Shown here one piece after another: positions 1,701 through 54,311 of a stretch of 64,000 bases of DNA (its first letter is position 1; the number at the start of each line of letters is the position of its first letter). Origin of the DNA: Picochlorum sp. SENEW3 (lineage: Eukaryota). Both the position numbers and the translations under genes were made by a program. The DNA lies in the NCBI GenBank assembly GCA_034226945.1, contig CP120456.1:1-64000 (forward strand), in the 5' to 3' direction. The notes beneath the pieces were generated by a model that was given only the letters and a program-made list of their open reading frames with translations, was not told the origin of the DNA and searched no databases.

Positions 1701-1821
1701 TGACAGCGACGAGGAGCCGACGGACGGACGAGCATAAATCATGGGTGCTTTTGATGAATGGACTTGGGAGTCTTTCCAAAGCTGACAATTCTATCAGTAC
1801 TTCGTTCAGTTACGTATTGCT

Positions 1822-2870: not shown

Positions 2871-3307
2871 GGCAGGATCTTCACAGCCACAACGCCCAAA
2901 AGTCCGTAAAAAGACACAATAAAAAAAGATGACCCTGGGAGCCCCCCTGTGCCAATCTCGAACTTTGTGGAGAGGGCAATGAGGCTACATAAGCCAATAG
3001 TACACACACCTCCGCAACACGAACACAAACACACACGCAGGACGCAAACATAATTAACTAATCGCTTGAACTACTCTTCAGCATGAACACATCTTCGCAA
3101 CCAACAAAAAAACAGCAAAATGCACCACCATGCGCACACAAAATACCCTAAGATATACCCTACCCAAACCCACACTAAGGCACCCTACCCTTTCTTCACT
3201 GGAGAAGAAGAAGAAACAATACCGAGCGGAAAAGACAACAACAATAAAATCTACGAATAAAATATCGCACAGCAAAACAGCCCGACCCATTCCTCTGCTA
3301 CACTTCT

Positions 3308-3594
3308 TGTGGCAGCGTACATTGCCAGTCGTGGCCTGGACTTCCTTCGCAGGTTACACAACGTACTGCCAATACACTCTCGTGTCGTTGCCAACACAGA
3401 GCGTTCAACCTTCACACGCAGTGAGGTTCGATAGAAGAGGATGGAATAGAATACCAACCAATGTACAGAGGGTTCTCTCTTCCTTCACAAGATAGTTTGA
3501 ATTAGAAGTTGTTACATGAGAATAAATCTTCTCAGTATATGAAATTGACCATGATGACCAGATCTCTCCTACAGGGATGTAGCTCTCTGCTACA
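3308..3594 (-). mobile_element. Diverged solo LTR related to the Gypsy LTRs at 14907 and 20518
   Basis: TGT...TGCTACA termini. It shares GAGCGTTCAACCTTCACACGCAGTGAGGTTCGA, TTGAATTAGAAGTT and GTAGCTCTCTGCTACA with the 296-bp LTRs. No clean TSD. Confidence 0.8.
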
Positions 3595-4856
3595 ACTTGT
3601 GCATGCTTTTTCACAGCTGGCTGTCCTCGCCCTCCTCCACATCCAGGCTCCCATCAGACCAGGTCTTGGATCGAAGGAGGAGGAGATCACAAGAACAAAA
3701 TCTACCACTTCTTTTCCGTCGCCGGTCCAACACCCCTTGTGGATGGGGGTAGGGTAGAAGAAGAATGAAAGAACATGCCAGCCAGCGAAAACCACGAGCC
3801 ACCATTAGACAAGGCAGACGTGGTCTCAGGAGACATGGTGGTCGCCCTTTTTTATTGTCCTCATTTACGGAGAAATTCTCGATGGACACAAGCTGCCGTA
3901 CGAGACTACACCAGGGCGCTGTCACGGGCATGGGAGGCGCCCTGTCCACATCAGCAAAAAGTCCGTAAAAAGACACAATAAAAAAAGAGGACCACCCATG
4001 AGGCCGGATGTTGTCTGACGAGGACAAGCTGGGCAAAAAACTCGGGCCATGGTCGCACAGGGTGGTCGTGATTTTTTATTGTGTTCAATTACAGAAAGGT
4101 CGACCACTCGCGCGACTCTCGACTTCTGTGCCATCCAACACGGCGACAGGGTGCAGGTGCCGTCTGGTAGAATAGTTCATCTGAATTGAAGTACCCTCAA
4201 TAATGTATCTGCACGAACTATCACGCCTACCCTGCTTCTGCCACGGTGTTGCGTGCCACGGCATGCCATGTCGACACACCACGGTGACAGGCGTGTGAGG
4301 GATGGAAGACATGCGCTTCGTTCCATTGTATGCAATCTTGAGACACATATAAACGATATTGAACAGCAGTCCACCCGGCAACGGGGGGCAGATCCTGAGG
4401 TGTCGTGCCTCCACATACATTTCGAAAATGTTCTATTTAAGCAGTGTCTGCTGCTCTCTCTCTCTGTGTGTCCTCTCCTGGTGAGCCCTTGCCCTGGCCA
4501 AGGCCACCCCCACTGTGGATGGATGGGCATTCGAAAATTCAAATTGAAACTCGCGGACGTGCTGGCAGCCCACTTCGTGACCTGCCCGCCCGTTGCTCGT
4601 CCTCAATTTGAAGTGTTTTTCTCGGTACTACTCGTCGAGGTGAAAGGGGGGTGGTGGTGTTGATCCGACTGTCGCCTGCCGTTGTTGTGCGTGTGGTCAC
4701 GTCGCCTCCGAGCCCGGAGCGAGTCCTCGTAGAGACCGTCGAGGAGTTTGCCTATATATCTTTAGATATATATATATACTACTATTAGTTTACGTCGCTG
4801 CTGCTGGTGCTGCTGGTGCTGCTGGGGAGCCAGGTGCTTTTCCTTGTTGTTGATCT

Positions 4857-6617
4857 TTGTGGCCGTGCGTCCCTGCTATGGCCCGTGTCTCGGACTCCGA
4901 TTTGACGAGTCGCCAGGTGGTGTACACCCGGTGGCGACTGCGTGGTTTGTGTGTAGGTTCTCGCCGTGGGGCTGCGGAGGTGGTGCACAAGGTGTTTGAT
5001 CGTGGCACTGGAGCTGGGCGTGTTCGTGTGAAGCGTGTGTGGCTGGGTCGTCGTCGTCGGGGGAGGGTTGGGTCGGGTTTTTTGCCTGTCATGTTTGAAA
5101 TCGAGCCGCCAGGGGTGTCCGCACGCCGGATGCAGGACCTGGTGGCCGTGTTTGTGGGGGACCACCGCCGGGCGGGCAGCTATGCTGGCGCTCGGTGGAC
5201 GGTGCGTCCTGGTGTGTATTGCCGTGGGGGTGGGGAGGAGCGCGACTCGCCGGTGCAAGCCAGGCATCGTGCTCGGGTGATGAGCTGGAACTGCGCGGGG
5301 TGGGGCAAAGGGGCACAGGCGGGCAAGCGCAAGGCGTTTGTGCGCCTGCTGCGGCGCGAGCGTCCGGCGGTGGTGGGGCTGCAGGAGACCCACGTGGGGC
5401 TGACAGACCGCCAGGTCGAGGTCCCGGGGTACTACACGTTGAGTGCCCCGGTTCAGGATGACCTGGCGGGGTGTTGGGGGATGTGCATGCTGGTGGCACG
5501 GGGGCTGCACGTCCGAGCGTTGGACACTGGGGATGCCAACGTCCAGGCCGTGCTGGCAGGGGAAGGGGTGGTGGTGGATGCCCAGTGCGTCCTGGTGAAT
5601 GTGTACATACCAACAAGGGGGGCAGGGGGGAAAGAAACGCGACGAACCCAGGTGGTCAAGAGGCTGGGCAGCCTGGTGCAGCAGTGGTACGCCAGGTATG
5701 GAGACGCCCTGGCCGTGGTGGTCATGGGAGACTTCAACTGCCCCGACAGGGGCGACCTGGACGAGCTGCTCACCAGAGGGGAAGTTATGCTGCACCCTGG
5801 CCCGCTTCACATGACAGTAGTGGCCAACCAACACCCCACGAGGGTGTTGAAGTGCAAGGATGGTGTCAAGGAGACCACCCTGGACCACTTCATGGTGAAC
5901 ACGCCTGCTCGGAAACTGTTCAACAAACACGCCACCAGCCTACTGTCCTGCCGCGAGGACCTGCAATCGGATCATGCACCTATTGTCGTTGGCTTCAGGA
6001 GCCCAAAGGCGAAGCAGAGACAGCGAACACGAGAAGAAGGGCCCCCCTCAGCGAGTGGGGAGGAGGCCCTTGTAGAAGGACGACAGGAGGCTGCTGGAGC
6101 AGGAGGCTGGGCTGGAGCTGGAGCTGGAGATGCTGTAGAGTCGACTCACCGTGTCGGAGCGACTCCATTGGTAGACCTGGACCTCGTGGCAGCCAGGGAA
6201 CAGCAGATTGTGCATGACCCAGAGTGGCTCCACGTCGCCGTGGTCATCCATCAGGACAGAGAAGGAGGACAGCTGAGACAGGGACTGGAAGGAGCAGAGG
6301 CGCCGCCCAGCATCGCCAATCCACCCGAAGTATTTTATAGAACGGCGATGCGGGTGCTTCGCCGCCATGGGTGCATCAAAGACCCCAGAGACAGGAGGGA
6401 CCGCAGCAGACTGCAGGACAAGGACGAGCTTGGACAGAGGAAGAGGAAGAGGAAGCGCATGTCGTTGGCAGTGGCCAACGCGGTGCAAAAACGCATTAGA
6501 ATACGGAAACGAATAGAGAAAAAGAGTTCGGCCAGAACAGGGGCGCCTAGTACAGAGGAAGATGCCCAGGCACTGAGGGAGGCCACCACCAAGGCCAAAG
6601 ACCAAGGCCAAAGCTAG
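4857..6617 (+). CDS. LINE ORF segment 1: apurinic/apyrimidinic-like endonuclease
   Basis: Motifs MSWNCAG, GLQETH, VNVYIP, MGDFN, LDHFMV, SDHAPI. The segment ends because of a 13-bp tandem duplication at 6588-6613. Confidence 0.9.
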   Translation: MWPCVPAMARVSDSDLTSRQVVYTRWRLRGLCVGSRRGAAEVVHKVFDRGTGAGRVRVKRVWLGRRRRGRVGSGFLPVMFEIEPPGVSARRMQDLVAVFVGDHRRAGSYAGARWTVRPGVYCRGGGEERDSPVQARHRARVMSWNCAGWGKGAQAGKRKAFVRLLRRERPAVVGLQETHVGLTDRQVEVPGYYTLSAPVQDDLAGCWGMCMLVARGLHVRALDTGDANVQAVLAGEGVVVDAQCVLVNVYIPTRGAGGKETRRTQVVKRLGSLVQQWYARYGDALAVVVMGDFNCPDRGDLDELLTRGEVMLHPGPLHMTVVANQHPTRVLKCKDGVKETTLDHFMVNTPARKLFNKHATSLLSCREDLQSDHAPIVVGFRSPKAKQRQRTREEGPPSASGEEALVEGRQEAAGAGGWAGAGAGDAVESTHRVGATPLVDLDLVAAREQQIVHDPEWLHVAVVIHQDREGGQLRQGLEGAEAPPSIANPPEVFYRTAMRVLRRHGCIKDPRDRRDRSRLQDKDELGQRKRKRKRMSLAVANAVQKRIRIRKRIEKKSSARTGAPSTEEDAQALREATTKAKDQGQS

Positions 6618-6708
6618 GCAGAGAGGCTGGACAGAGGCCACACGCAAGGCCACTGAGGCAGCCAAGAGGGGCGACTGGGAACAAGTATGGAAATACATCA
6701 AGAAGACG

Positions 6709-8721
6709 GTGAAGAAACAGGTGGGGAGCCCCTTGGGTGTGCCGCTGCGAGACCCCGCCACAGGGCAGCTGGTGTATGACGAGGACAGCAAGGCGGGAGT
6801 CCTCATGGCCCACTTCGCACACCTGGCGGTGGACCCGCACCCACAGAGCAGAGAGTGGTGGGAGCAGCAACACCCGCTGCCCGAGGAAGGAGAATGCAAG
6901 GAGCTGGATGTGGAGGTGAGCTGGCCAGAGGTGTCGACCGCCTTGGCAAGGGCAACCACCTCCAAGGCACCTGGGCTGGATGGCCTGCCAAACGAAGTGC
7001 TGAAAATGTGCAAGGGGCCGCCCACGGCGATGGAGCCGCCCAATCCGATGGCAGCAGCACTTCTGGAGCAGTGCCAAGCGATGCTGGATGGACAGGTGTC
7101 TCAGGAACTCAACACCAGTGTGTTGGTAGCTCTGGACAAGCCGGGGAAAGATGCCCAGGAGGTGGGCAACAAGAGAGGCATCAGCCTCATGCCGACGCTG
7201 CTCAAACTGGCTACCAAAATAGCAGCGAATAGAATACAGAACCATACCCCCGAGGTGGCCAAGGAGCAGGCGGGCTTCAGGCCAGGAGAGGAATGTCTGC
7301 AAAACGTGGCAGCCCTCCACGAGGTGTGCCACTTGAGAAGGCACCACTGGGGGCAGCCCACCTACGTGGCCTTCATGGACCTCAAAAAAGCGTTCGATAC
7401 AGTACCTCATGCCGCAATGCTACACGTGTTACATGCCAAAGGGGTGAGGGGAAAAATATACAGGTTCATAGACAAGGTGTACCAGTCGGGCTCATTCGTG
7501 CTCCAACACCACCAGCAAGGTACCACCACCGCACCAGCACCCATCCAGCGAGGGGTCCGACAAGGGGACACATTGTCACCACTATTGTTTAGTCTGTTCA
7601 TTGACCACGCCATGGACGGCCTGGAGGGGGTGGAGGTGCCAGACAGACAAGGAAGGACGGTGGGCCACATGCGAGGGCTGTTGGTGGCCGACGACGCCGT
7701 GCTCCTGGCCCCACACGCTGAGGGCATCCAGGCAGCTCTTGCCAAATTTCAGACTTGGTGTGACACCTATCACATGCAAGTAGGCCACGACAAATGTGGC
7801 CTCATGGTGCCCCTCCCAGAGTTCCAACACCTGCAGGCCCAAGCCAAGGAAGCGCCAGATCAATTCATGTGTCAAGGCCAGCCCATCCCTGTAGTAGATC
7901 AGTACACATACCTGGGGCTCCAAATTGATCTTAATCTTAGCACAGACACATTGAGAAAAGGTAGACTAGAAGCTGGAGAGCAAGCGCTGCGGGCTTTGGC
8001 GCCAATGCTTGCTAATGCCCGAGTCCCACTGGCTCTCAAGGCGGTGTGCATCAAAGGACTGTTGCTGCCCACCCTCACATATGGGGCCGAAATTTGGGGC
8101 GCTGGGCCCTGCCAGGACCACACAGATATTCACACAATTTATAGCGATGCCATGCAACTAGCCATAGTGGGCACCAGAAAAGCCAAAGCCACCTACAGAA
8201 GAGACTCGGCCACAATTGAGCTGGGACTGCCATCGATCCAAGCCGCCATCACCACCGCGCCTACCAGAGCTATTAGGAAATGGACACAGTCAAAAACATG
8301 GATACAGGACCTTCTCCTCCACCACGACCATAGACAAATACTAGAGGCAGCTGTGACAGCGCTGCACACACCACCACCACATGCCACAGACACCTCGCCA
8401 GAGGCCCAGTACCAGCAATGGATCTGGGAACTGACTCAGCCAGCAATTACCACCACCTGCAACACAACATGGATCCACAAAGCCACCAAAGGAGCACTAC
8501 AGCAACTTGCCAACACCCACAGGACAATTGCCCATCACCACCACCAACCATTCTATGACCTGCAACAACCCACCACCACCACCATACCCACCACCAAGGA
8601 GCTGACGAAACACATAAAAAGACAGAGAGGATTAGAAGGGTCATTACGACCTGCCAAAGAGCAAAATCCACAGTGGCAGTGCCATATCAATACTGCCTCG
8701 CGACAGCAACCGCACTATTGA
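6709..8721 (+). CDS. LINE ORF segment 2: reverse transcriptase
   Basis: KAPGLDG, RGISL, QAGFRPG, DLKKAFDTVPH, GVRQGDTLSPLLF, VADD, YTYLG, LTYGAEIWG. Confidence 0.92.
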   Translation: MKKQVGSPLGVPLRDPATGQLVYDEDSKAGVLMAHFAHLAVDPHPQSREWWEQQHPLPEEGECKELDVEVSWPEVSTALARATTSKAPGLDGLPNEVLKMCKGPPTAMEPPNPMAAALLEQCQAMLDGQVSQELNTSVLVALDKPGKDAQEVGNKRGISLMPTLLKLATKIAANRIQNHTPEVAKEQAGFRPGEECLQNVAALHEVCHLRRHHWGQPTYVAFMDLKKAFDTVPHAAMLHVLHAKGVRGKIYRFIDKVYQSGSFVLQHHQQGTTTAPAPIQRGVRQGDTLSPLLFSLFIDHAMDGLEGVEVPDRQGRTVGHMRGLLVADDAVLLAPHAEGIQAALAKFQTWCDTYHMQVGHDKCGLMVPLPEFQHLQAQAKEAPDQFMCQGQPIPVVDQYTYLGLQIDLNLSTDTLRKGRLEAGEQALRALAPMLANARVPLALKAVCIKGLLLPTLTYGAEIWGAGPCQDHTDIHTIYSDAMQLAIVGTRKAKATYRRDSATIELGLPSIQAAITTAPTRAIRKWTQSKTWIQDLLLHHDHRQILEAAVTALHTPPPHATDTSPEAQYQQWIWELTQPAITTTCNTTWIHKATKGALQQLANTHRTIAHHHHQPFYDLQQPTTTTIPTTKELTKHIKRQRGLEGSLRPAKEQNPQWQCHINTASRQQPHY

Positions 8722-9443
8722 AACAAGGCCTCAAATCAGGAACAAGGGAGGGAATCTTCATTACACCATTAATAAGAGCAAGACTTAATGGATATGGTAA
8801 TCTTCTATACAGACAGAGACATTTTGCACCTGCAGTTCAAACCAATCTTCGCATTAATGGAATCAAAAGCGACCATTACTGCTGCTCGTGCAAGACACAA
8901 ACCAAAGACACCCTTCACCACCTAGGCATGGAATGCACAGCCTATGCAGAATTGAGAAATACGTACCTAAACAGCATGCTAGACCACTTTAGAGCATTAC
9001 TAAATGTAGAGGGCATCATGGATACAGACGAGGATCTCTGGATGCTCTGCCTTGGAGGCACCGGGTTAATCGCTGACAAATATTGCAACAATGATCTCTT
9101 CACAGAACTGACCAAATACTGGCTGTATGCAGATCCAGAAACACCATCACCACCACCACCAGAGAATGAGATAGAACCCCCATCACCAGCACCGCCGCCA
9201 TACCAACAAACGGCAGCATTTATCAAAAGTGTCATGACGAGACACACTAGAGCCATAGACAAGTTCCTTCGCCGCCATGAACGTAAAACAACCAAGAAGA
9301 CTCCACCACCAAGACAGCCATCATCATCAAGATCAGAGAGAGAGGGTCCAAGCCATGCTGCAGGCCACGGGTCCCAGAAACCCGAGACCACTCTCAAACA
9401 GTCAAAGATCACCTCCCTGTGGAGGAGAGCTCTGGCTCCATAA
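8673..9443 (+). CDS. LINE ORF segment 3: C-terminal zinc-knuckle-like region (frameshifted)
   Basis: LIRARLNG...CCSCKTQTKDTLHHLGMECTAYAELR resembles the CxxC..H..C motif at LINE ORF2 C-termini. Confidence 0.75.
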   Translation: MAVPYQYCLATATALLKQGLKSGTREGIFITPLIRARLNGYGNLLYRQRHFAPAVQTNLRINGIKSDHYCCSCKTQTKDTLHHLGMECTAYAELRNTYLNSMLDHFRALLNVEGIMDTDEDLWMLCLGGTGLIADKYCNNDLFTELTKYWLYADPETPSPPPPENEIEPPSPAPPPYQQTAAFIKSVMTRHTRAIDKFLRRHERKTTKKTPPPRQPSSSRSEREGPSHAAGHGSQKPETTLKQSKITSLWRRALAP

Positions 9444-10581
9444 CAGCCTCAGGACTGGGCAATTTCCTGAGTCTCGCGCCCCATTAGTATAGTTCTGGAT
9501 ACACTGAAGTAGGAGCGCGAGCATCCAGGTCCCTTGAGGATCTGGATAAGCCAATGCCACTGGTACGGCCTGGCTGTGGATCTCCCTGGGCACACTGATC
9601 CTTGGAGACTGAGCAAAGAGGGATGAAAGACAAGCTGTGACCCCTGGTGAAACATGGGACTCTTTTCCCTCGACGACGAGAAAACATCAAGAGCAAACAG
9701 CACAGACAATGAAGCCACGACATGATGCATGCTTTGGCGAAGAATTGCAGTGCAGTTTGAAACACATCGTCGTCGAGGTTTTCTTGCCCATGTCCCTCCC
9801 AGGAAGAGAAACAACCGACTCACCACTCATGTCAACCGTTTCTTGGAACTCTGGCGCTGGAATAGAGGATGCTGGGAGCTGGAATTGTGTCTGAAACTGT
9901 GGGCATGAGAGGAACCATGACAGGAGCCAGTGCTGCCTCCTGGCTCCTCTCTCATGCTACCTGGGCTGGCCTGTACCTGACTAGGACTGCCTCCACAAGA
10001 CATTAGGAATTATTGCACTGAAATGGGACGTCTGGGTAGTCAACATAGGTGGGGAACACTAGAGTCCCCCTCACCCATGGAGCACCGTGCATGCCTGCAC
10101 AGACTGCTCGTGGTAACCAAGCAGTGACAACCCACACAACCCAGAAATAGCACAAAAATTCCTAATGGTGTCCGAAACGGACACGGAGGAGGATGCATAT
10201 CGAGTGGGCTGGATGGGAGATGATAGCTGCCCCCATAGTAGGATAGCACCAGGCTCCAAGGGAACCTTATCCATACTATGGGCAGAGAATCTAAAAGATT
10301 CGAGCGCGCCCTCCTAGACAAGCTGACTCAGCAGAATCCGCGCCCCAGGAACTCTCCTAGCGAGGCGCCCTCCTCTGGGAGTCACGTCATCCAGTCACAA
10401 CACAGCCAACCGGGGCGAGGATTTGAACCCTGGCCCTAGGGGCAACATCCGCCCTTAGCCCATAGTAGACCCCCACCCTTCAACACAACCCAACCCCAAC
10501 ATTTTCTCACCCCTTCCTTAGCCCAAATGTTCCACATTTTGTTCATATAGCTATATCTTCATCTCTATTGTAAAAAAAAAA

Positions 10582-12175
10582 CCCTACCCTGTGCATACCG
10601 TCGTTCCTTGGCAGTGAGGGTAATGAGGGTATATAACACCATAGTCACCCTACTTCCCACCACACAAACAAAAAATAAACACAATTTTCAAATAAAAATA
10701 ATAATAAACTACCCAAAAATAAGAAAATATCCAAAAAATCAAAAATAAAGCCAAGAAAAAACACCACCAACAAGACCAAAATACCCTAACCAAAAAAACA
10801 CACCAACAAAAAAAACATCCAAAAACACAACCAAAAGAACGAGAATATACAATACAATATCAAGAAGAAGAATAAGTAGTATAATAAACACCTACTATAT
10901 ATACAACGACAACGACAACAACAAAAGACACGGCATACCACAAGCTCTGCTACTACTACTGCTCCTCCTCCTCCTCCTACTACTACAACAAGAGAAGACA
11001 ACAACAACAGCAACCAACACAAAAGAAGGAAGCAAAACCAAAATCAAAAGATAAAAATCTCATAATAATCATAATGACACAATAACAATCTATACTATGC
11101 TAGGCTATGCATGAATGAAAAGAATCTCTGTCTTCTTCTTCACAACAACAACAGCAACAACAGAAGGACACAATATTAAGTAAGTAAGTAAGTAAGAAGA
11201 ATACCAGTAATAATAATAATAATAAACACCCATCATTAAAAAAAAGCGTCGCACACCCAGTGCAAAACAAACAGTGGTCTGCTGCCACATGTCTGAAGAA
11301 GAGGGAGCAGCTCGGAACAGGAAGAATGGCGATCTTCCCATCACCCCTTGACTTGACTGGGACCACCACCAAAAACATACCAACCAAACCAAGTAAGGGT
11401 GTAGAAAACAGCCACCCTACATAACAACAACAATAAGAATACAATAAATCAACAACCATCTAGCATTCACACCACCACCACTACTACTACTACTGCTGCT
11501 GCTGCTACAGAACATGAGACAACACACCAACAAAGAAGCAAAGCAATCAAAAGGAGAAAGTAGATATCTCATAATAGTAGTAGTAGTAATAATGATAATA
11601 ACATGCACAACAATCGACACGAGCAACGATAACAACCAATAATAACAGAACAGAACAAAGCACACAAGTCTCATGCACACAAGAAGAACAACAAGGAGCT
11701 ACCCTACACAGACAACATATGAGATAGAGAGAGGTATAATAGTAGTAGTATATATAAAAAGAATAAATAGAAGACATGAAACAAGAATAAAATGAAAAGA
11801 AATCGTCGTCTTCACAACAACAACAACAAGCAAGCTGAGATAAGCACCAGAGGAACATTGCAGCAGCTGCAATGCTGGAGCATCTCTCAATATCATCATC
11901 ATGCGAGGCACGCGTACTTACTTACTTACATAGACTTCATGAGTTGCAATTAGGATAGTAATAGTAGTATATAACTGCGCAGCGTCTTTGAATGGGGAAG
12001 ATCTCGTCGTGTTTTTACAGCAAAGAAAGACTGCTCATCAGCTCTCCTCCTGACTGCTGTGTGCTCCACATATCCAGGCGCTCCCATCAGAAGGGGTCTT
12101 CCATCGGACAAAGGAAACCAACATCGAAAAGAAACTACCACCACCGGTCAAAACTCCATTGTGATGGGAGATGAA
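10582..12175. repeat. A/C-rich duplicated block, copy B, with CAA/CTA microsatellites
   Basis: Begins CCCTACCCTGTGCATACCGTCG directly after the LINE poly(A). Homologous to 1822-2870 with an internal expansion. Confidence 0.85.
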
Positions 12176-14906
12176 AAAAGCCACAAAAAGCACGCTGAGT
12201 GTGGCCGAGCGGTTAAAGCGTGTGGTTTTGATGGTCGTCCTTTTTTATTGTCCTCATTTACGATGGACACGCCTGAAAAAAATTAGAAGTCCGACCTTAT
12301 CGATCGGTCCAATACCACGTCGGACCGATGCCTTCAGTCTATCTACCCTATGAGAGGGAGACCTTGGAAGAAAGAAAAGCTCTACTACTACACCTTTTGT
12401 TCTTCTTCTTCTCTACAACTATTACTGTTGGTTTACTACGACTACTACGACTACTACGACTACTAAATAACAACAATAATCAGTGCCATTGTTACCCGAG
12501 AGGTAGAAACAACGAAGAGAGGGGTAGTAGCAATAGCAATAGCACACAATGTGTGCTCACCCACCGTCCACAGACTCAACCAACAAAACAGCAAAACAGC
12601 TCCATACACACACTGATTCGTGGATTCAGAAAACACAACAATAACACGAATAATCAAAAAATATGTTCTAATCGATCTATTCTATCGTATGGTAAGCAGA
12701 ACAACGTGTGAATACAGGATGGATGTGGACATTCACACAGAGATCTGTTGGGGGAATCATGCAAAGACACCCTGCTGTCCTGACACGCGACTGCTTTTTG
12801 AGCAGTATTTCTAGTAGTATGTCGTATCCTTGTACAAAATGAACAGAACAAAAGATGTATAGCAGAATCAATCTGGTTTTGATTGAAATGATAGGTGCTG
12901 CCTGTCCACCAATAGACTAGGGAATGTGGCCATCACAAGAGCTGCTCTGACCTGGATGAATGAATGTAGGAGCTACAACTACAGAAGAAAAAAAGAAAGG
13001 CTTCTCTGCTACACAACAACAAACAAAACGAAAACAAAGAACAAACAGAATGTATTCCCATGCGTTTCTTTACCAATCAACATTGATTGGAACAACAATA
13101 CAAAGAGAGCCTGTGACAAGAAAGGAGGTGGCTCACCCTCACCAATAGGTTGGTTGTTGAATGGGGCTCCACTAGTATTTGACACCGTGTCGAATAGTCG
13201 AGATTCAAATGACCGCCAAGAACGAAGAAAAGGAGTTGAAAAGATGATTGCAACAGCAGGCAAAGCCCCAAACCGAGGCAAGAGAAGAAAAAAGAAGAAG
13301 CCACGCGCCAGGCTCGCAGGACAAATCGATCCATCTGTTCGAAAAGGAAAAACAAAAGAAAGAGCGGAAAGCACAGAGCGAAAGAGCAACGTTCGACGAC
13401 AAACAATAGGGGTAGGTTCACCACAAGAGGCCCAGAGGATGCATCCCACAGGCCTACAACATGCACTGTCCATACTGGGGGCAGACTATCGCCTGATAAG
13501 ATCTATGTACCGTCATAGAAGGAATAAATATAATTCAATGCCCCTCAATATTGCCGTCACTGCCCCCAACTGGGCATGGGCACAGCATACCTCACAGGAT
13601 GCGTCATCATACCTCGTGATGCGAAATCAGTCTGTGAATTTGGAACAAGCATGCGTCACACATGCGTTATTGCCACCACTGTATCTGGGACCTCATCACG
13701 CAAGGGACCGCAACATTCGACGCATCAAAAATTTGGCATTGCGACATGAGCTAATGTTCTATGTTTCTACTACTATAGAATATCCTGTATATCGTCGTCA
13801 ATTCCACTAGCATCGCAGCAGATAGGAGTCGCTCCCCAAGGGGGGTAAGAAAAAGAAGAGCCATGAAGACGATTCATGTATTCATAATAATAATAAATCA
13901 ATTTTGATAGTATAGCACCAGCGCATGGCTACAGAGGGAGAAAACTGTCCCCAACCGTTCACGACAAAGCCATGGCAACATGCTGCGACGTCGAGGAGCC
14001 TCTTCTCCTCGTGGATTTTTGTATTTATCGTTGATTGTCACTCCACCATCTAAAATAGTATCGAATGAAGTCAAGGAGACGACAGAAGAAAGCAAACCAA
14101 GCTCAAGCAGGCGGGTGGCAGTGAGTGTGTTGCGCCAAGAGCACGCTAGCTTGTTCAACCCTGTGGCTCTCTCACTGAACTGTGGTGCGCTCCTGTCATC
14201 CATTCGACCGGAGACACAATTTCAGAAGCAAAACGCTCGTCGTGATATTAGTCCGTAAAAAGACACAATAAAAAAGACGACCACGCGACAAGTTTGACAA
14301 GTTTGGCAAGGTCACGATTTTTATTGTGTTCAATTACAGCACAAAACACTGGGGTGAAATCGTTGAAATTGTCGTTAAATCTGAAAGGTCACGATTTTTT
14401 ATTGTGTTCAATTACAGCAGAAAAACACTTGGGTACTTGGGAGTGTGTATCGATCAGTCTAGAGTGTCCAATTGCATCGAACATGGAATTATACTTGCAT
14501 AAACGTATAATCCCTGCTGACACCGCGACGAATGAAAGTCCCTATTAAAAACACAGCCTGTGTGGGTGGTCGTCGTCAATTCCGTTCGCGTCACATTGGT
14601 TGGGAGGAGGAGGAGGGGCCTGCAGAGCTGTCACCCATGGGCAGGAAGGGCCATTAATATGATTCATACTAAACCAATTATACCACCCATGTATGGCTAC
14701 TTCCAGAGAGCGAGCGAGAGCGAGAGAGTGGTGTCCTTGACCGTTCCACGGCATTGCCTTAGCAACATGCCCCGACGTCCAGGACCTTCTTATGGTGGGT
14801 TTCTGTACGAATCGCTCATTGATTTTCATTCCAACCCCTCTGAATGAAATCAAGGAGACGCCAGACTACTCCAAAGCTCAAGGAAGCGAATGGTTGTGTG
14901 TGTGTT

Positions 14907-15202
14907 TGTAACAGCATGTCGCCAGTGTGGTTCTGGACTTCCTTCCAGAGTGACACGGCATGCTGCCAACATGCGCTCGCCAGCCGTTGTCGACAGGGAG
15001 CGTTCAACCTTCACACGCAGTGAGGTTCGACTATAGTGTGGATTGCATAGCAATTAATCATACAGTGGGTATCTCTCATATTCACTAAAAGTACTTGAAT
15101 TAGAAGTTACATGAGAAATAATGATTCTCAGTATATGAAGATGCTGATGATGACAGATCTCCCCAGAGATCTCTTCCCACAAGGACGTAGCTCTCTGCTA
15201 CA
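14907..15202 (-). repeat. 3' LTR
   Basis: Identical by eye to 20518-20813. Confidence 0.95.
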
Positions 15203-15276
15203 ATTCCTCCCTGCCAAGAACAAACCAAATGTCCTCATTTGGAACAGGGCATGTTTACCTCCCTGCCAAGAGCAGG

Positions 15277-16560
15277 TTATTCATCATCCAAAGGAATGAT
15301 CAAATCATCATCATCTGAATTCATAGTGGTGTCGTCGGAAGCATGAACCTTGTCGTTTTGAGGAAATTCCTCTGCATTTTCTGCTGTAGAATCATCCCAT
15401 TCTCTTTCCAATTGATGGTTCATTGTATCAATATTCATTCGGGAATGATAATGCTTCACTCGATCCACATTGACGACTGGGTGGAAAGCATAGCCTTGTT
15501 GCTTGGAATTCAATTCAACAGCATTGTTGGGAATCACCCTCACAACCGTGAATGGTCCAATCCAGCGAGGTTGCAGCTTTTTGAATTGCTTTCCTTCCCA
15601 CTTCAATTTGTGATTGGAGAGCAGAACTTGATCTCCTTCCTTGTAGACAGCCACTCTTCTGGATTTGTTGGCATAATGAGCTTGTCTCTGTTGTGCCACC
15701 CTCATGTTGTGGGTTGCAGCCTGATGGCAACGAAATAACACATCCAAATATTCAGAGCTCGCTGTAGTCTTCTCAGTGTCTTCCAGACCTAAAGCAATGG
15801 TATGGGGCTTTCTGGGATGACGACCATAATTCAAATAAAATGGAGTGAACTTGGTCGATTGCTGATACGAATCATTGTAAGCAAACTCCAGAGGCCATAA
15901 CAATTCATCCCACGTATTCGTGTATTCATCACAGTAGCATCGAATCATATCTTCCAGCACTCGATTCACTCTTTCAGTCTGCCCATCCGTCTGTGGATGA
16001 TAGGCAGTGGATTGCAACTTCTGGCAACCCAGCTGGCTCATGAGCTCGATCCAGAACTGACTCGTAAACTTTGGATCTCTGTCTGACACAATGCTCGACG
16101 GCATGCCATGCAAACGATACACATACTGCAGAAAGATGGAAGCAGTACCTTTGGCATCCAACGACGCAGGTGCTGGTGCAACGGTGAGACATTTGGTGAA
16201 CTTGTCCACCATCACCACAATCTGAGAATTCTTTCTGGCAGTCAACGGCAAATCTGTGATGAAATCAATTGTAACCTGGTCCCAAGGCTTGGCAGGAACA
16301 GGCAATGGCTGTAACAATCCAGCAGCAGGCTGATTCAGGCTCTTGACACTCTGGCAGACAGGACACTCTTTGACATACTTGGCCACATCATCTTGCATTC
16401 GAGGCCAAAAGTAGTACCTGGCCAGATCCTTGCACATCTTGTCCCTTCCAGGATGACCACTGAACATGCTGTCATGATGCAGCATCAACAACTCAGTCTT
16501 GAACGAAGCATTGTCTGGAATGATCAACCGTTTTGGGTGCTGAGGTGATGGGCCATACAC
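15277..16560 (-). CDS. Gypsy integrase (frameshifted from pol)
   Basis: HHCC zinc motif (HHDSMFSGHPG..CPVC), DDE core (IDFIT, SDRD, QTERVNR), GPF motif WIGPF. Confidence 0.95.
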   Translation of the reverse strand: MYGPSPQHPKRLIIPDNASFKTELLMLHHDSMFSGHPGRDKMCKDLARYYFWPRMQDDVAKYVKECPVCQSVKSLNQPAAGLLQPLPVPAKPWDQVTIDFITDLPLTARKNSQIVVMVDKFTKCLTVAPAPASLDAKGTASIFLQYVYRLHGMPSSIVSDRDPKFTSQFWIELMSQLGCQKLQSTAYHPQTDGQTERVNRVLEDMIRCYCDEYTNTWDELLWPLEFAYNDSYQQSTKFTPFYLNYGRHPRKPHTIALGLEDTEKTTASSEYLDVLFRCHQAATHNMRVAQQRQAHYANKSRRVAVYKEGDQVLLSNHKLKWEGKQFKKLQPRWIGPFTVVRVIPNNAVELNSKQQGYAFHPVVNVDRVKHYHSRMNIDTMNHQLEREWDDSTAENAEEFPQNDKVHASDDTTMNSDDDDLIIPLDDE

Positions 16561-19500
16561 CCAAAACGTGGATAATACAGCAATCCATTGTGTTCAGTCA
16601 CAGCATCCATGTTGACGTGATTCAGAATGGAGGGTACTGGAACTCGTTGCTTATAGCACTTTCGAATCGACCCAATAAACTTGTCTGTCTTGTACAACTG
16701 CCTCAATCTGTTGAGCAGAGCCTCATCCAGCTGCAAGCCCACGGCCACAGAATTCAATACCACTTCTGGAGGTCTGCTGAGCAAATCAGCAATACAATTC
16801 TTCTTTCCCTCAATGTACTGAATATCCAGATTAAAATCAGCCAGCTTGTTCAGCCATCTAATTTGCACACCATTCAGATCCTTTTGAGTGGGCAAATGAG
16901 TCAAGGGCCTGTGATCAGTAAAAACCACATTCTTTGGCTGCCCCAGCAAGTAACACCTGAAACGCCACACTGTGAGTTTCATAGCAAGAAATTCCTTGTC
17001 ATACACAGAATATCTGAGCTCGGCGCCTTCCAGCTTCTTCGAATAATATCCAAGAGGATGATACATGCCATCCACCAGCTGTGTGAGAACTCCTCCCACG
17101 GCATACTCCGAAGCATCTGTGAATACATGAAATGGCTTGGACATATCCACCAATCTCAAGACTGGATACGTCGTCAAAGCGTTCCTGAGAATTTCGTACG
17201 CTTGCTGAGCCTCCTGGGTCCATACAAAAGGCACCTCCTGCTTTGTCAATGATGTCAAAGGCAGGGCAATCTTGGCAAAATCTTTAATGAACCTTCTGTA
17301 AAATCCCACAGCTCCCAAAAAGGACCTAATCTGCCTCTTATTGGCAGGTCTTGGAAACGTAGCTATCTTTTCCACGAGTCTCTGGTCAGGCTTGATGCCC
17401 TCGGATGTCACCACAAATCCTAGAAACTTGGTGCTCTGTCGAAAGAACTCGCACTTCTTCATATTCAAATATACTTTGTTTTTCTTCAGACACTTCAAAA
17501 CAGTCCGAACATGCTCCTTATGCTTTTTCTTGGTCTTGCTAAAGATGAGAATATCATCCAGAAACACCACCACAAAGGCATCCATGTGGGGCTTGAGCAG
17601 CTTATTCATCCAGGCTTGAAACGTTGCCGGAGCATTGGTCAACCCAAATGGCATCACTCGAAACTGATATGAGCCATACCTCGTTCTGAAAGCTGTTTTG
17701 TGTCTGTCTTTCCTTGCTACAGGAATCTGGTGATACCCCGAATTGAGATCCAGTGCTGTGAAGTACTTGGCTCCAGACAGTTGATCCAACAACTCGTCAA
17801 TGTTGGGCAAGGGATAACTGTCCTTGACTGTCTGCTGATTGAGCATCCTGTAATCTACGCACATGCGCAGATCACCATTCTTCTTCTTGACGAACAACAC
17901 ATTGGAACCAAAAGGCGACGTGGATGGTTCAATAATCCTCTTGTCCAGGAACTGCTGCAACTGCTTGCGAAGCTCTCCCAGCAACGTAGGAGACATCCTC
18001 CTCAACGGTTGCACCTTGGCTTTTGTTCCAGGGACCAAGTCAATGTGATGTTCCACAGCATATGGTCTACCTTCAGAAGCATCTGGAGGCAATTGCCCCT
18101 CCAGCATAATGTCACCATACGAATCTTTCAATTCCTGTAGAAACTTTTTCTGGTCTTCCTGCTCTGCTCCCATTTCCAGAGCATGAAGACCCTTTTCATC
18201 TGTCGCACGACCAAGTGGCTGTTCACGTCGAGTGCTCACGTGAATCATATACATTTTCTCCACGCCCGAGACAGATTGGCATGTCTTTTTCATAGCAGAA
18301 GCAGTCAGCAGCAGGTCATCTTCCTGGGCATGCAGAACTCTTTGGGTCGGCTTTCTCAACAATACAGACATGGATTGATAGCACAAACTAGCTCCTTGTG
18401 CCTTCAACCACGGCTGGCCTAAATACACATCATACTTGCTGTTCAAGGGTGCCACTCGGAGGGCCACATGGGTCACACACTCCTGAGCTCCATGTTGCAC
18501 AATCCTCAAAGAACAATTTAGGACTTGATCAATACTCCTTCCAGATGACCCGTCTGGAAGCTTAAGCACTAGCGATCGACCTGTCGTCACATTCAATCCA
18601 CTAGTCCTGGTGAGGAAATTCTCAGCCACGAAGTTTTCCTCAGCGCCCGAATCCATTAATATTCGCACTCTATATCCTTTGATGTAGCCGTCGAAAGAGA
18701 ATATCAACCCTTTATCACCTTTCTTCGACTCCTGGAGATGGTATAAATCTCGATCCTTGGAAACACAGTCCCCATCATGAACACCAGCTTTGGTCAAAGC
18801 GGCCGTACTGTGCGATTCCTCAACAATCTCATTTTTGTTACTATTGGACTCCAGGGGTGGTCCAGGCGTTTCTTGAATACAATCCCCTGTTCCTAATCGA
18901 TCTCCAGATCCTTTTGTTGTGAATTCCTCCTCGCCTGGGACAGCGACCTCACAGTGTTGCAGCGATGTGGACTGGCCACCCTTCGGTGCCCAACAAGGGC
19001 AGCGACGGCCCAAGGCCAATTGATCCTTTCCACATCGCGAGCACAACTTCCCATATCTGTCAGCAGTCTTGACACAGAAATGAGTGGGATCCCATGCTGC
19101 ACCACAACATTTGCACTGTCCCTTGACAAACTTCTTTGGCTTCTTCCTGTTCTTCGTCTGCGTCTCCTGGCCACTCACATGATGAATGACCACTTCCGTG
19201 GACGACGACGACGGCGACAAATGAGAAATCCAATGCGACAAGTAAGCAATCAGTCTGTCCAATCTACTTCTAGACTGCACCTGTGGAGTGGTCTCCACCT
19301 CTTTGGCCAGCTGCTCTCGTTCATATTCCAACGCCTTGGCTTTGAATGCTGGCGTCAACGAGTTGATAAAGGTCTTGAACACGTGAATTTCAGAGTCTTT
19401 ACTACCCATCATTTCCAGCTGGTCCAGCAATTGACGAAATGCCCCGAGATGACGATCGAAATCATCCGCCGACTTCATGGTCAGCGAATTAAACTTGTCA

Positions 19501-20033
19501 TACAAGGCCTCCACTGTCCTGACTCCAGCGTATTTACGAAAAACCTCCTGGGTGAGAGCATTCCATGATTCGAACGAGCCGTTCTCTCGTACAGCCGATT
19601 CATACCAAAGACGGGCACTATCCCGAAACAACAGCTTGACCTCCTTCAACCAGCGAGCCTCATCGTCTTGAAAACGATCCGACATATATATCTTGGCGCT
19701 GGTGGTCCATCGAATCACGCCGTCTAGGTCATTATGCTTCTCACCATAGAAGACGGGAGCCTCCAGCTTGGGCAGCTTGTACCCCAGCGACGCACTCGTC
19801 TCTTGATCGTCCGACATCTGCCTGGGGCCTGTCTGCGATTGCATCGACAACTGTTTCACCATGGCTTTCAATTGTGCGATCTCCTCATACAAATTGGCGA
19901 CCTCCGTGGTCCCCTGGCTCACCGCGCCCAGGTCATCAGAGTCGAAAGCATCATTCTCCCGCAGGCGTATCTCGATGTCCGGTGGACTCCCATGTCCAGC
20001 CACTGGGCTCTCATTGCCCGGATTACTCGACAT
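16524..20033 (-). CDS. Gypsy gag-protease-RT-RNase H polyprotein
   Basis: Cys-rich gag knuckles, protease LMDSGA, RT LRMCVDYR / MPFGLTNAPATFQ / FLDDIL, RNase H TDASEY..DKEFLA..TDHRPL..ADLLSR. Confidence 0.97.
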   Translation of the reverse strand: MSSNPGNESPVAGHGSPPDIEIRLRENDAFDSDDLGAVSQGTTEVANLYEEIAQLKAMVKQLSMQSQTGPRQMSDDQETSASLGYKLPKLEAPVFYGEKHNDLDGVIRWTTSAKIYMSDRFQDDEARWLKEVKLLFRDSARLWYESAVRENGSFESWNALTQEVFRKYAGVRTVEALYDKFNSLTMKSADDFDRHLGAFRQLLDQLEMMGSKDSEIHVFKTFINSLTPAFKAKALEYEREQLAKEVETTPQVQSRSRLDRLIAYLSHWISHLSPSSSSTEVVIHHVSGQETQTKNRKKPKKFVKGQCKCCGAAWDPTHFCVKTADRYGKLCSRCGKDQLALGRRCPCWAPKGGQSTSLQHCEVAVPGEEEFTTKGSGDRLGTGDCIQETPGPPLESNSNKNEIVEESHSTAALTKAGVHDGDCVSKDRDLYHLQESKKGDKGLIFSFDGYIKGYRVRILMDSGAEENFVAENFLTRTSGLNVTTGRSLVLKLPDGSSGRSIDQVLNCSLRIVQHGAQECVTHVALRVAPLNSKYDVYLGQPWLKAQGASLCYQSMSVLLRKPTQRVLHAQEDDLLLTASAMKKTCQSVSGVEKMYMIHVSTRREQPLGRATDEKGLHALEMGAEQEDQKKFLQELKDSYGDIMLEGQLPPDASEGRPYAVEHHIDLVPGTKAKVQPLRRMSPTLLGELRKQLQQFLDKRIIEPSTSPFGSNVLFVKKKNGDLRMCVDYRMLNQQTVKDSYPLPNIDELLDQLSGAKYFTALDLNSGYHQIPVARKDRHKTAFRTRYGSYQFRVMPFGLTNAPATFQAWMNKLLKPHMDAFVVVFLDDILIFSKTKKKHKEHVRTVLKCLKKNKVYLNMKKCEFFRQSTKFLGFVVTSEGIKPDQRLVEKIATFPRPANKRQIRSFLGAVGFYRRFIKDFAKIALPLTSLTKQEVPFVWTQEAQQAYEILRNALTTYPVLRLVDMSKPFHVFTDASEYAVGGVLTQLVDGMYHPLGYYSKKLEGAELRYSVYDKEFLAMKLTVWRFRCYLLGQPKNVVFTDHRPLTHLPTQKDLNGVQIRWLNKLADFNLDIQYIEGKKNCIADLLSRPPEVVLNSVAVGLQLDEALLNRLRQLYKTDKFIGSIRKCYKQRVPVPSILNHVNMDAVTEHNGLLYYPRFGCMAHHLSTQNG

Positions 20034-20517
20034 CCTTCTGTAGATAAGGACAACGATTCAGACATGCTTATCAAGGTTGACTTGCCGAACAACTAATCAA
20101 TGTACCTGTGAATAGAGAGAAACGATATCTATATATTTCACTGCTCTTCTGGCATGTGAAATGTATCACCCACAACCACTGTTCGTATTGTTCGAACTAG
20201 TGCATGTATGATCAGCTGTTTCGGCGGAATAGAATGTTTTCCGAATGACCTACCGCAAGAACGAGGCTCACTCTTCTGCATCAGATGGCGGCGGAGCGCG
20301 TGCCACCCACGCGTTTGCATGGTCCAAGATCATGCACGTGGCCCAGCACGTGCCAGACTGATGCACGTGTCCCAAACGCGTTTGTGAGACGCGCCTGGCA
20401 CGCGTCCGACGCCGAGTCGAGACGTTCCCAGTTTCTCAAACGGTTGCGCAGAAACATTCTAAACCAGCCAAAACAAGCACACAATACTTAAAAGTATTTT
20501 CTCAGAGCTGAAACCAA

Positions 20518-20813
20518 TGTAACAGCATGTCGCCAGTGTGGTTCTGGACTTCCTTCCAGAGTGACACGGCATGCTGCCAACATGCGCTCGCCAGCCGTTG
20601 TCGACAGGGAGCGTTCAACCTTCACACGCAGTGAGGTTCGACTATAGTGTGGATTGCATAGCAATTAATCATACAGTGGGTATCTCTCATATTCACTAAA
20701 AGTACTTGAATTAGAAGTTACATGAGAAATAATGATTCTCAGTATATGAAGATGCTGATGATGACAGATCTCCCCAGAGATCTCTTCCCACAAGGACGTA
20801 GCTCTCTGCTACA
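20518..20813 (-). repeat. 5' LTR
   Basis: Identical by eye to 14907-15202. Confidence 0.95.
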
Positions 20814-22759
20814 GTGTTGGCACGAATGCCAACAACTAATGCCAAGCTTGCTTGTTGAGAGGAGTATCTGTGGTCGGCTCGCAAAATTGTGGACACGTAA
20901 ACCATGTAACAGGTTAATAATGGTGTTTATTACCTCTGGGAGTAGGAGTACTTGGGTACTTGATGGGAGCGGAGTAGAGAGTCTGTGTGTTGGTCTCACT
21001 GACAGTGTCCGCTCCTGGCATCCATTCGACGAGAGACATCACGCATACTACTTCTCGTCGTCTCTCCGTCCGTAAACAGACACAATAAAAACAGGCGACC
21101 ACCACACCGGCACACCGGCCATGGGTCACGATTTTTTATTGTGTTCAATTACAGCAGGAGAAAAAAAAACACTTGGGTACTTGGGAGTGTGTATCGATCG
21201 CTCTAGTGTTCAATTACATTGAATATGGGATTATTATACTTGCAAAAACGTCCTGCCGACACCGCGACGAATGAAAGTCCCCATTAAAAACACAGGTGGT
21301 CGTCGTCAATTCCGTTCGCGTCACATTGGTTGGGACGAGGAGGAAGGGCCTGCAGAGCTGTCACCCTTGGGCAGGAAGGGCCATTCATATGATTCATAAT
21401 AAGTCCATCATACGACCCACGTATGGCCACATTCACAGAGAGGGGCCCGTAGCCGTTCCACGGGAATGCCTTGGCGATCACAGTGGACAGAGCCACGACG
21501 TCCAGGACCTCTCTTTCTCCTGATGGGTTTCTGCATGAATCGTTGATTGACATTGCAATACTTTTGAATCAAATCAATGAGGCGGCAGAAAAACAAAACC
21601 AAGCTCAAGCAGGCGGGTGGCAGTGAGTGTGTTGCGCCAAGAGCACGAATGCCACGCTTGCTTGTTGAGAGGAGTATCTGTGGTCGGCTCGATTTCTGGA
21701 AGTACACCATGTTATAGGTTCATAGTAATACGGGTAGAAGGAAGCGTGTTTGTTGCCCAGCATTACAGGGAAAGGAGACTTTGATTGGGTATTGAGAGCG
21801 GAGGGTAGCCACAGGGTCTCTTTTCTTTGAGAGATGGCCGCTCCTGGCATCGATTCGACCGGAGACATAATTTCAAACGCAAAACGCTCGTCGTGTTTCC
21901 GTCTGTAAAAAGACACAATAAAAAAAGACGACCACGGGCCAAAACTGGACAGTTCGTTGACATTGGCGTCGAATAAGCTACTTTTCGACGCGAACCACGG
22001 AGACGCACGATGGTCCGGTCCATCAAACTACTGGACCGGAAGAAGAAGCCACGTTGGTTGCTCTCTTCGTTCGTAAAAAGAGACAATAAAAAAAGGTGAC
22101 CAGTTAGACTGCCATTATCACGACTGTTATAGAAGGGAGAGACGTGGGTCGACAAAATTTCATTGCGTTCATTTCCGATAACGGGAGTGACGTCTACTGC
22201 ACGGCTTTTTTACACACAGCAAAAAGACGAAAACAGCATTTTTTACAGCAACAAACAGCAAACAGTTCCATCTGAATATCGTTTCTTGATGGGCAGGGTC
22301 ACACAGCAAGACCTCATCGCGGCACTTTTCAACTGATGGTCCGCCAAACTGGAATGCTGCGTCGAATCTCCCCCAATGTCTGTTGCAAAAGCAAGAAATC
22401 TCCACTCTCAGATTCTCGTCGGAGGACGATTCTCTGTCACCATGGAGAATGAGGCCTCTGTTGGCTTTTCCCATTGACTTGTTTTGCTCTTTCCTGACTG
22501 CAGGGTGCACCACTGGAGGGGCTTCTTCCGCCCAAGCGATCCTGAAATGCCATTGCATTCTCTAGACTGTGATCCGATCGCTGTCAAAAAGTTCCTCACC
22601 ACTTCAAATCGCCATGCCACGCTTCGTTGGCAACAATCTTATCCTCAAGATGGAAGATTCGAAATCGTTCCAGGAGGAACAAGAATTTGGTGGAGGGCAC
22701 ATGGGCGGGGGTACCATATATGCTAATATTAGGGGAAATTCGATAGCACACAGTACAGT

Positions 22760-54278: not shown

Positions 54279-54311
54279 GCACCATTTTCCATACGTAATG
54301 GTAATTTAACT

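Follow-up and report, generated by a model that had tools for sequence, protein, structure and literature searches.

A polar sequence motif of Picochlorum subtelomeres with junctions and short duplications at its GACC tip

Introduction

The window considered here comprises the first 64,000 nucleotides of contig CP120456.1 (contig C4) of Picochlorum sp. SENEW3, whose genome assembly (GCA_034226945.1) totals 13.85 Mb in 14 contigs. A repeat zone in its left part carries 12 copies of a short motif, GTAA-N6-ACAATAAAAA-N5(4)-GACC, and gene-dense DNA that includes plastid-type genes (e.g., PAP fibrillins) extends from 22.7 kb onward. An earlier note on this DNA had described the motif and suggested a constrained protein-binding site, a recombination site, or a transposon end. 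Across the genome, the motif is restricted to subtelomeres and holds a fixed polarity relative to the chromosome end; its fixed blocks vary less than their surroundings, and its GACC tip is marked by junctions and by adjacent duplications of 8–11 bp.

The motif at the end of contig C4

The copies in the window belong to several variants, or types, and alternate in direction. Copy 1 (2906..2934, forward strand, AAAGAC type) points its GACC tip towards the centromere. Copy 2 (3840..3868, reverse, ATGAGG type, tip towards the telomere) and copy 3 (3965..3993, forward, AAAGAC type) are the left and right ends of a bracketed unit of 154 bp, and copy 3 lies 70 bp from the facing copy 4 (4064..4092, reverse, TTGAAC type). 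Copies 5 (12233..12261, reverse, ATGAGG type) and 6 (14255..14282, forward, AAAGAC type) likewise bracket a 2-kb non-coding unit (12233..14282). A facing gap of 27 bp (14283..14309), built on a 9-bp unit present twice and measuring 18, 27, 45, or 46 bp at other chromosome ends, leads to copy 7 (14310..14337, reverse, TTGAAC type), the outer member of a same-direction pair; the inner member, copy 8 (14387..14415, reverse, TTGAAC type), is the left end of a 0.8-kb unit split by a long terminal repeat (LTR) element. Copy 9 (21072..21100, forward, ACAGAC type) faces copy 10 (21124..21152, reverse, TTGAAC type) across 23 bp (21101..21123) with two copies of an 8-bp unit, of which another end has four (36 bp). 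Copies 10 and 11 (21905..21933, forward, AAAGAC type) delimit a unit of 810 bp, and copy 12 (22073..22101, forward), 139 bp past copy 11 in the same direction, is the last intact copy before the gene-rich core. A decayed thirteenth copy (~22147..22176, reverse) lies at the subtelomere's inner border, facing copy 12 over a gap of 45 bp; its weight-matrix score is 5.6, against a best of -5.0 among 255 background windows.

This layout agrees with the earlier note, in which two bases before GTAA had been added to each copy: all 12 copies are present with matching 31-mers and coordinates, the facing gaps are indeed 70, 27, and 23 bp, and the brackets put at ~155 bp, ~0.8 kb, and ~2 kb measure 154, 810, and 2050 bp. 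A fourth bracket (14387-21100, ~0.8 kb with the LTR retrotransposon removed) and the same-direction pairs 14310/14387 and 21905/22073 had escaped it. The fixed-spacing pattern (at most two mismatches) is matched 10 times in the window, whereas 100 shuffles give 0.00, two of the 12 copies having an A-run one base shorter than this pattern. Confinement to the repeat zone also holds, as the weight matrix detects no copy between 23 and 64 kb of the window.

The consensus of 22 copies chosen to represent unrelated inner flanks is T-C-Y-GTAA-N6-ACAATAAAAA-A-N4-GACC (~32 bp), a profile that is partly given by construction because the matrix chose the copies. Read from the tip, it becomes GGTC-N5-TTTTTATTGT-N6-TTAC(R-G-A), that is, a terminal block followed by two inner blocks. 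The flanks had been called divergent; this is true overall, with 22 inner and 21 outer flank clusters across all examined arm and interior DNA, and fails for some flanks in the window, which form homologous families (14387-14906 vs. 21124-21633, 76%; 14188-14291 vs. 21839-21942, 88%).

The chromosome end and its units

A left-over Oxford Nanopore ligation adapter (1800..1821, forward) precedes the repeat zone. The same constant tag, identified as such an adapter in a published source (10.1101/2022.07.07.499093), recurs at 22 ends or mis-joins in the genome, and at most contig ends it is followed by CCCTATA repeats, the predicted telomere repeat of Picochlorum (PMC8287931). Because the adapter occupies 1800-1821, the true chromosome end lies at ~1822, and the repeat zone of the earlier note is a subtelomere. 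The telomere itself (1822..1839, forward) has ~2.5 repeats and opens the shared terminal unit; window positions 1-1799 are probably a chimeric-read artefact beyond the true end. DNA beyond an adapter also occurs inside C1 (~384 kb) and at C3 right, C6 left, C10 right, and C12 right, where chimeric-read mis-joins are again the probable cause; window 1.8-10.6 kb recurs, with small errors, in the C12 extension. At all 22 adapter-marked ends, the CCCTATA stretch before the subtelomere is merely 17–20 bp. The telomeres thus seem extremely short (~18 bp), if this is real, since consensus collapse or base-calling could produce the same picture. Picochlorum-type algae have been reported to be without the usual telomere repeat, and an alternative end-maintenance system has been suggested, its manner left open (PMC6141220); the prediction of CCCTATA came afterwards. 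With adapters and mis-joins retained at the assembly's ends, the short telomere and the arrangement and count of distal modules await confirmation on trimmed reads.

From the telomere inward, the shared terminal unit is followed by bracketed non-coding units with short gaps between them. Each unit (0.15, 0.6–0.8, 1, or 2 kb) is bracketed by a reverse and a forward copy, and some unit ends are doubled, with two same-direction copies 35–170 bp apart. The terminal unit common to nearly all chromosome ends is found at 10585..12232, its boundary being the GACC tip of copy 5. The 2-kb unit gives 59 matches, every one of them close to a contig end; a coding role is ruled out for it, as 14 copies have neither codon bias nor a common open frame. 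Unit bodies are old paralogues that can barely be aligned beyond scattered similar blocks, and their end blocks persist. The subtelomeric units are covered by contigs from all four outside sequencing runs compared (labelled as three cultured organisms and one metagenome).

Two retrotransposons are later passengers in this subtelomere. The first is a long interspersed nuclear element (LINE; 4854..10584, forward, the left coordinate not being a mapped 5' limit) with APE endonuclease and reverse transcriptase frames (Pfam PF03372, PF00078), whose poly(A) is fused to an eroded telomere remnant at 10582. Its 3' end faces the centromere, the orientation of telomere-extending retrotransposons. The second is a young Ty3/Gypsy LTR retrotransposon (14907..20813, reverse) whose 296-bp LTRs are identical and which is flanked by a 5-bp target duplication; its empty site is present in contigs of three of the four outside runs. 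A diverged solo LTR lies at 3324-3595. Stretches resembling tRNA A and B boxes occur at 12193-12232 and in the flank of ATGGGA-type copies; tRNA targeting was rejected, as the boxes are not enriched (10 B boxes near, 80 far) and neither ARAGORN nor Rfam reports a tRNA.

Genome-wide distribution and polarity

Exact matches to the motif number 102 genome-wide, against none for the reversed control, and among the 100 listed, 96 fall within ~50 kb of contig ends. Allowing two mismatches gives 156 matches against 10 for the control. As 147 of these lie inside 775 kb of examined DNA and the remaining nine about equal the control's 10, the other 13 Mb of the genome is at control level. Only four exact copies are interior: one adjoins an internal adapter and marks a mis-join, two are captured subtelomeric fragments (60 and 180 bp, outer flank included), and one belongs to a diverged pair beside a Mutator-like element (MULE) on C3. 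The weight matrix recovers 159 copies in 27 examined arms plus interior regions.

Once arms are trimmed at the adapter, orientation is fixed for each variant in 147 of 147 copies: GACC faces the telomere in the ATGAGG, ACAAAC, and TTGAAC types and the centromere in the AAAGAC, ACAGAC, ATGGGA, and TAGAAT types. A copy occurs within 2.2 kb at 18 of the 22 adapter-marked ends and within 7.6 kb at 20. Two ends (C9 right and C7 right) have no copy in 17–20 kb; they have in common a 10-kb terminal block (99.6% identity) followed by a long 153-bp satellite.

The pattern and matrix scans show clustering at chromosome ends instead of dispersal with target-site duplications (TSDs), in support of the earlier suggestion of a subtelomeric site. 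The clusters sit at both ends of most contigs rather than once per chromosome, and the resulting distribution rules out three earlier suggestions or their kin: a centromere element, a general replication origin, and a dispersing miniature inverted-repeat transposable element (MITE).

Constraint on the fixed blocks

Conservation was measured in families defined by the inner flank alone and then extended across the motif. Six families were pooled after four rows in which the motif had been replaced were dropped; a seventh, overlapping family was left out. Extra alleles were counted at 27 per 108 columns for fixed positions (0.25 per column), 30 per 65 for N positions (0.46), and 361 per 667 for flanks (0.54), so that fixed blocks differ from N positions at p ~0.015 and from flanks at p ~1e-5 (binomial), in a test that is partly circular, as these very copies served to define the fixed positions; nor do related copies count as independent. 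A separate run on three families gave core diversities of 0.014–0.047 against 0.12–0.18, each of the low-diversity cores being matched by ~9–10% of flank windows. When motif-less rows were kept in one family, no reduction was seen (0.153 vs. 0.139), and many single changes occur in GTAA and GACC. Constraint on the fixed blocks is therefore about twofold, not absolute; this agrees with the earlier proposal of a site under constraint, and the refuting outcome named there, a motif no more conserved than its flanks, was not seen.

Junctions and short duplications at the GACC tip

Alignments between chromosome ends stop at motif positions 26–49 in 91 of 1172 clusters, against 22.3 expected, with a peak at positions 29–36, the alignment ends not being independent of one another; 12 stop inside the motif, against 23.2 expected. 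In the AAAGAC and TTGAAC families, diversity rises from 0.14–0.18 on the GTAA side to 0.52–0.55 in the 30 bp past GACC. Of 70 distinct outer 50-mers, 18 contain a perfect tandem duplication of 7–13 bp, compared with 4 of 60 inner 50-mers; since facing gaps are counted from both sides, independent cases are fewer. The background is ~1% (core windows, 5 of 819; other subtelomeric windows, 50 of 4682).

The 29 facing pairs are separated by 18–227 bp. Arrays of 8-, 9-, or 11-bp units, in 2 to 20 copies, occupy 13 of 24 distinct facing gaps; all but one begin 0–7 bp off one tip, and nearly all reach to within a few bases of the other. Seven unit sequences are represented, five of them at the AAAGAC/TTGAAC junction. 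Same-direction pairs show gains of 10 and 12 bp next to the tip. In two of seven independent cases, interstitial telomere seeds stand 2 and 38 bp outside a motif tip: telomere repeats are fused 2 bp from the tip at C11 left (9953-9967), and a head-to-head seed lies 38 bp from a tip in the C11 right arm (4315). These two seeds look like traces of breaks that were healed with telomere repeats and then re-joined.

Two other accounts of the facing pairs were set aside. Growth of the gap arrays by doubling would suit the lack of any three-copy array, yet the order of unit variants does not fit it. Facing pairs are also not tiny MITEs with GTAA outside, as they have no shared flank and the variable side is that of GACC.

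A proposed transposon-end-like site that may still be cut

The reading favoured here, which we would place a little short of an even chance, is that the motif is a transposon-end-like site that may still be bound, and cut at its tip, and that has been spread between chromosome ends by recombination. A terminal block plus two inner blocks is the layout of a transposase-bound end in insertion sequences and in elements with terminal inverted repeats (TIRs). The motif would act like a transposon end that no longer travels. A candidate protein, either a transposase or a host protein derived from one, would bind the inner blocks and nick or cut at the GACC tip or a few bases beyond it. Staggered nicks that are filled in give tandem duplications; repair of such breaks could leave the 8–11 bp duplications and small indels, and on occasion a tip might be joined to other DNA. 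Instead of dispersing by cut-and-paste, copies would move from one chromosome end to another through ordinary terminal exchange, a process that preserves polarity. Such a site would explain why units are bracketed, why the tip reads GG, why junctions peak on one side, and why the duplicated units measure 8–11 bp.

Several observations count against this proposal. Junctions are also doubled on the GTAA side (42 vs. 19.5 expected), and a shared 30-mer will by itself draw the ends of alignments to its borders. For hairpin-type palindromes, no clear enrichment is seen (11 of 70, with a 12% background at arm 5). In some contexts the motif variant travels with the outer, GACC-side flank, and the unit variants are ordered as stepwise gain would leave them, a pattern that slippage can produce too. 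None of the 37 bracketed segments has a target duplication: flush direct repeats reach 2 bp at most, and with offsets of up to 4 they reach at most 5 bp. Dispersed copies are absent, both for the motif, whose interior matches are at control level, and for the 2-kb unit. No motif was found near the MULE, hAT, Harbinger, tyrosine-recombinase, or Fanzor genes examined; the only motif pair that abuts a MULE, on C3, has replaced that element's TIR tip; and DDE_Tnp_IS1595, the Merlin transposase domain, has no match in the genome in a loose first look that could miss divergent genes.

The lack of TSDs and of dispersal implies that the site no longer moves as an element. The earlier idea of a recombination site or transposon end is supported in part, by the pile-up of junctions and short duplications at the tip; a TIR of a dispersing, TSD-flanked family is not supported.

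Transposon families and the search for an enzyme

Inverted ends that bracket a unit are present at the 37 neighbouring reverse-forward segments noted above; they are imperfect, left and right variants differing at most N positions. The tip GGTC and the ~30 bp length compare with the 5'-GG and the 24–462 bp TIRs of Merlin elements, although the tip is placed here from junctions, not TSDs. The 8–9 bp TSD of Merlin was not found, only tandem 8–11 bp units in gaps.

MULEs give 21 matches at ~11 loci, with target duplications of 9–10 bp in this genome. The idea that the motif is a MULE TIR arose from the copy beside the C3 MULE transposase, and it was abandoned: ten element ends were inspected and eight aligned, none contains the motif natively, and the TIR tips of sister elements are unrelated. 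At C3:600-609 kb, the MULE, with SWIM and Ulp1-protease frames, lies among AT-rich orphan genes; the diverged motif pair at its truncated right TIR has its own 8-bp triplet repeat. An orphan gene beside this pair was considered as a source of the binding protein and rejected, having few relatives and no Pfam or PHROG family of weight; its protein model has a small beta domain and a coiled coil, with no fold match at E 0.001 and no nuclease fold.

The two hAT loci and the one Harbinger locus likewise have no motif nearby. Fanzor-element ends (18 matches in the genome) were excluded as well, since interior copies have no weight-matrix match of at least 6 bits and their ends differ. In the window, a TnpB/Fanzor-type frame (53208-54305, reverse; PF07282) shares 60% identity with two 801-aa C7 copies whose inverted ends are short and mariner-like. 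Furthermore, a Fanzor family of 1034 aa has left 3' fragments, truncated at their 5' side, at the inner borders of five subtelomeres (C7 left 5526-5984, C4 right, C11 right, C1 right, and C7 right); every fragment is directed towards the centromere, and together they reflect about three independent events.

An autonomous transposase element bounded by the motif, which the earlier note had envisaged, was not found. Among 26 frames chosen from 285 in the subtelomeres, no DNA-transposase family appeared, and no cognate enzyme emerged from searches that did not extend to Tc1/mariner, CACTA, piggyBac, Helitron, KDZ, P, or Sola. Restriction of the motif to chromosome ends limits the scope for a partner enzyme, though one that has lost its own ends may exist. 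Because the TSD, dispersal, and partner tests failed, the motif is not assigned to Merlin, MULE, or any MITE family. Viral and bacterial origins were also rejected: viral contigs contain no exact match (83 unrelated single matches to a looser pattern), and prokaryote genomes contain none and 20 single matches, respectively, which is chance level.

Alternative explanations

A possible, though rather less probable, alternative is a host subtelomeric binding site that is not cut, of the SPE2/PfSIP2 or yeast X core type. Here a sequence-specific protein would build end chromatin, anchor ends, or block forks where telomeres are very short, and instability at the tip would be a side effect of fork stalling or open chromatin. 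The strict subtelomeric restriction with its polarity, the reduced variation of the fixed blocks, the copies close to 20 of 22 adapter-marked ends, and the presence of the units in all four outside runs are all in its favour, as is the precedent of SPE2, a bipartite site that is 94% subtelomeric (PMC2829057). It is harder to reconcile with the two motif-free ends and with the bracketing of paralogous units by pairs, as element ends do; moreover, binding alone predicts neither a sharp one-sided junction peak nor 8–11 bp units. A host site explains restriction and constraint just as well as the transposon-end-like cut site does, and the tip less well.

It seems unlikely that the copies are the dead ends of transposons, no longer partnered by any protein, whose likeness is maintained by gene conversion across a set of ~160. 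The motif would then be a passive 30-bp microhomology for exchanges, and the gap arrays would be slippage minisatellites from old target duplications. Exchange of variants between contexts fits this account, as do the four pooled-family rows that have lost the motif, its decay at inner borders common to few ends, the single family without lower diversity, and the many changes in GTAA and GACC. Conversion, however, should homogenise the N positions, yet these distinguish stable variants and are more variable than the fixed blocks, and the occurrence of different unit sequences at a single junction type implies that arrays were seeded anew more than once.

Finally, a centromere element, a general origin bound by the origin recognition complex (ORC), a small nuclear RNA (snRNA)-type promoter, and a tyrosine-recombinase crossover site are together very improbable: the T-rich core, the inverted pairs, the likeness of the GTAA block to the algal snRNA upstream element CCCRTAA (PMC8287931), and the one tyrosine recombinase gene in the genome would suit one or another of them, but clusters lie at both ends with interiors at control level, CCCATAA and a TATA box occur upstream of U6, where the motif is absent, and facing gaps of 18–227 bp leave no fixed spacer, with no motif within 20 kb of the recombinase locus. 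That locus (C5:576829-578607) holds a single 592-aa tyrosine-recombinase-like gene whose N-terminus resembles an organelle transit peptide by eye. A crossover site of such enzymes consists of two inverted arms around a fixed spacer of 6–8 bp.

To return to the transposon-end-like cut site, a stronger form of it, which we regard as something of a long shot, is that of a domesticated cut site, where a host nuclease or former transposase would break DNA just outside the tip and so drive end exchange, extension, and re-capping in an alga with telomeres of seemingly ~18 bp. If true, this would amount to a sequence-programmed form of end maintenance that supplements telomerase and is absent from the literature searched. 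The polar site can serve as bait in pull-downs and fixes a position at which to map breaks, which makes it possible to test how ends are kept and reshuffled. Should the motif turn out to be no more than the relic of a transposon, it would still add a modest new repeat family and help as a landmark when chromosome ends are finished.

Comparison with known systems

No description of the motif was found in the literature searched, a search that lay outside the PMC8287931 supplement with its promoter and telomere motifs per species; the available text of PMC8287924 contains neither "inverted" nor "Picochlorum", and that of PMC11092101 does not contain "subtelomer". Among transposons, Merlin/IS1016 elements are similar in their ends of ~30 bp, their imperfect left and right ends, and, to judge from the junctions that place the tip here, their GG tip, and their 8–9 bp duplications match the size of most gap units here (PMC8101967). 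They differ from the motif in its lack of a TSD at all 37 brackets, its lack of dispersal and of a detected DDE_Tnp_IS1595 gene, and its fixed chromosome-end polarity. The MULEs of the same genome also have GG tips and target duplications of 9–10 bp, close to the 8–11 bp gap units, and one of them is inserted between two motif copies; however, their TIRs of 100–280 bp share nothing with the motif, and they are dispersed and TSD-flanked.

Facing neighbour ends are likewise the substrate of reversed-ends transposition by maize Ac/Ds, which yields duplications and rearrangements that end exactly at the termini (PMC3744419). The products of Ac/Ds are long and have matching TSDs, whereas those seen here are gains of 8–11 bp in short gaps, with no known enzyme.

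Among chromosome-end repeats, the Sultan and Spacer repeats of Chlamydomonas and Subrel of Coccomyxa form tandem arrays of a whole unit, with no short polar site in the available description, and resemble the present system as species-specific repeats common to green-algal ends (PMC8287924). SPE2/PfSIP2 of Plasmodium falciparum differs in that its bound protein is known and in that neither a hypervariable tip nor inverted bracketing figures in the available text of PMC2829057; no likeness in sequence was seen. In layout it is comparable to the motif, being multipartite, fixed in spacing, and almost exclusively subtelomeric.

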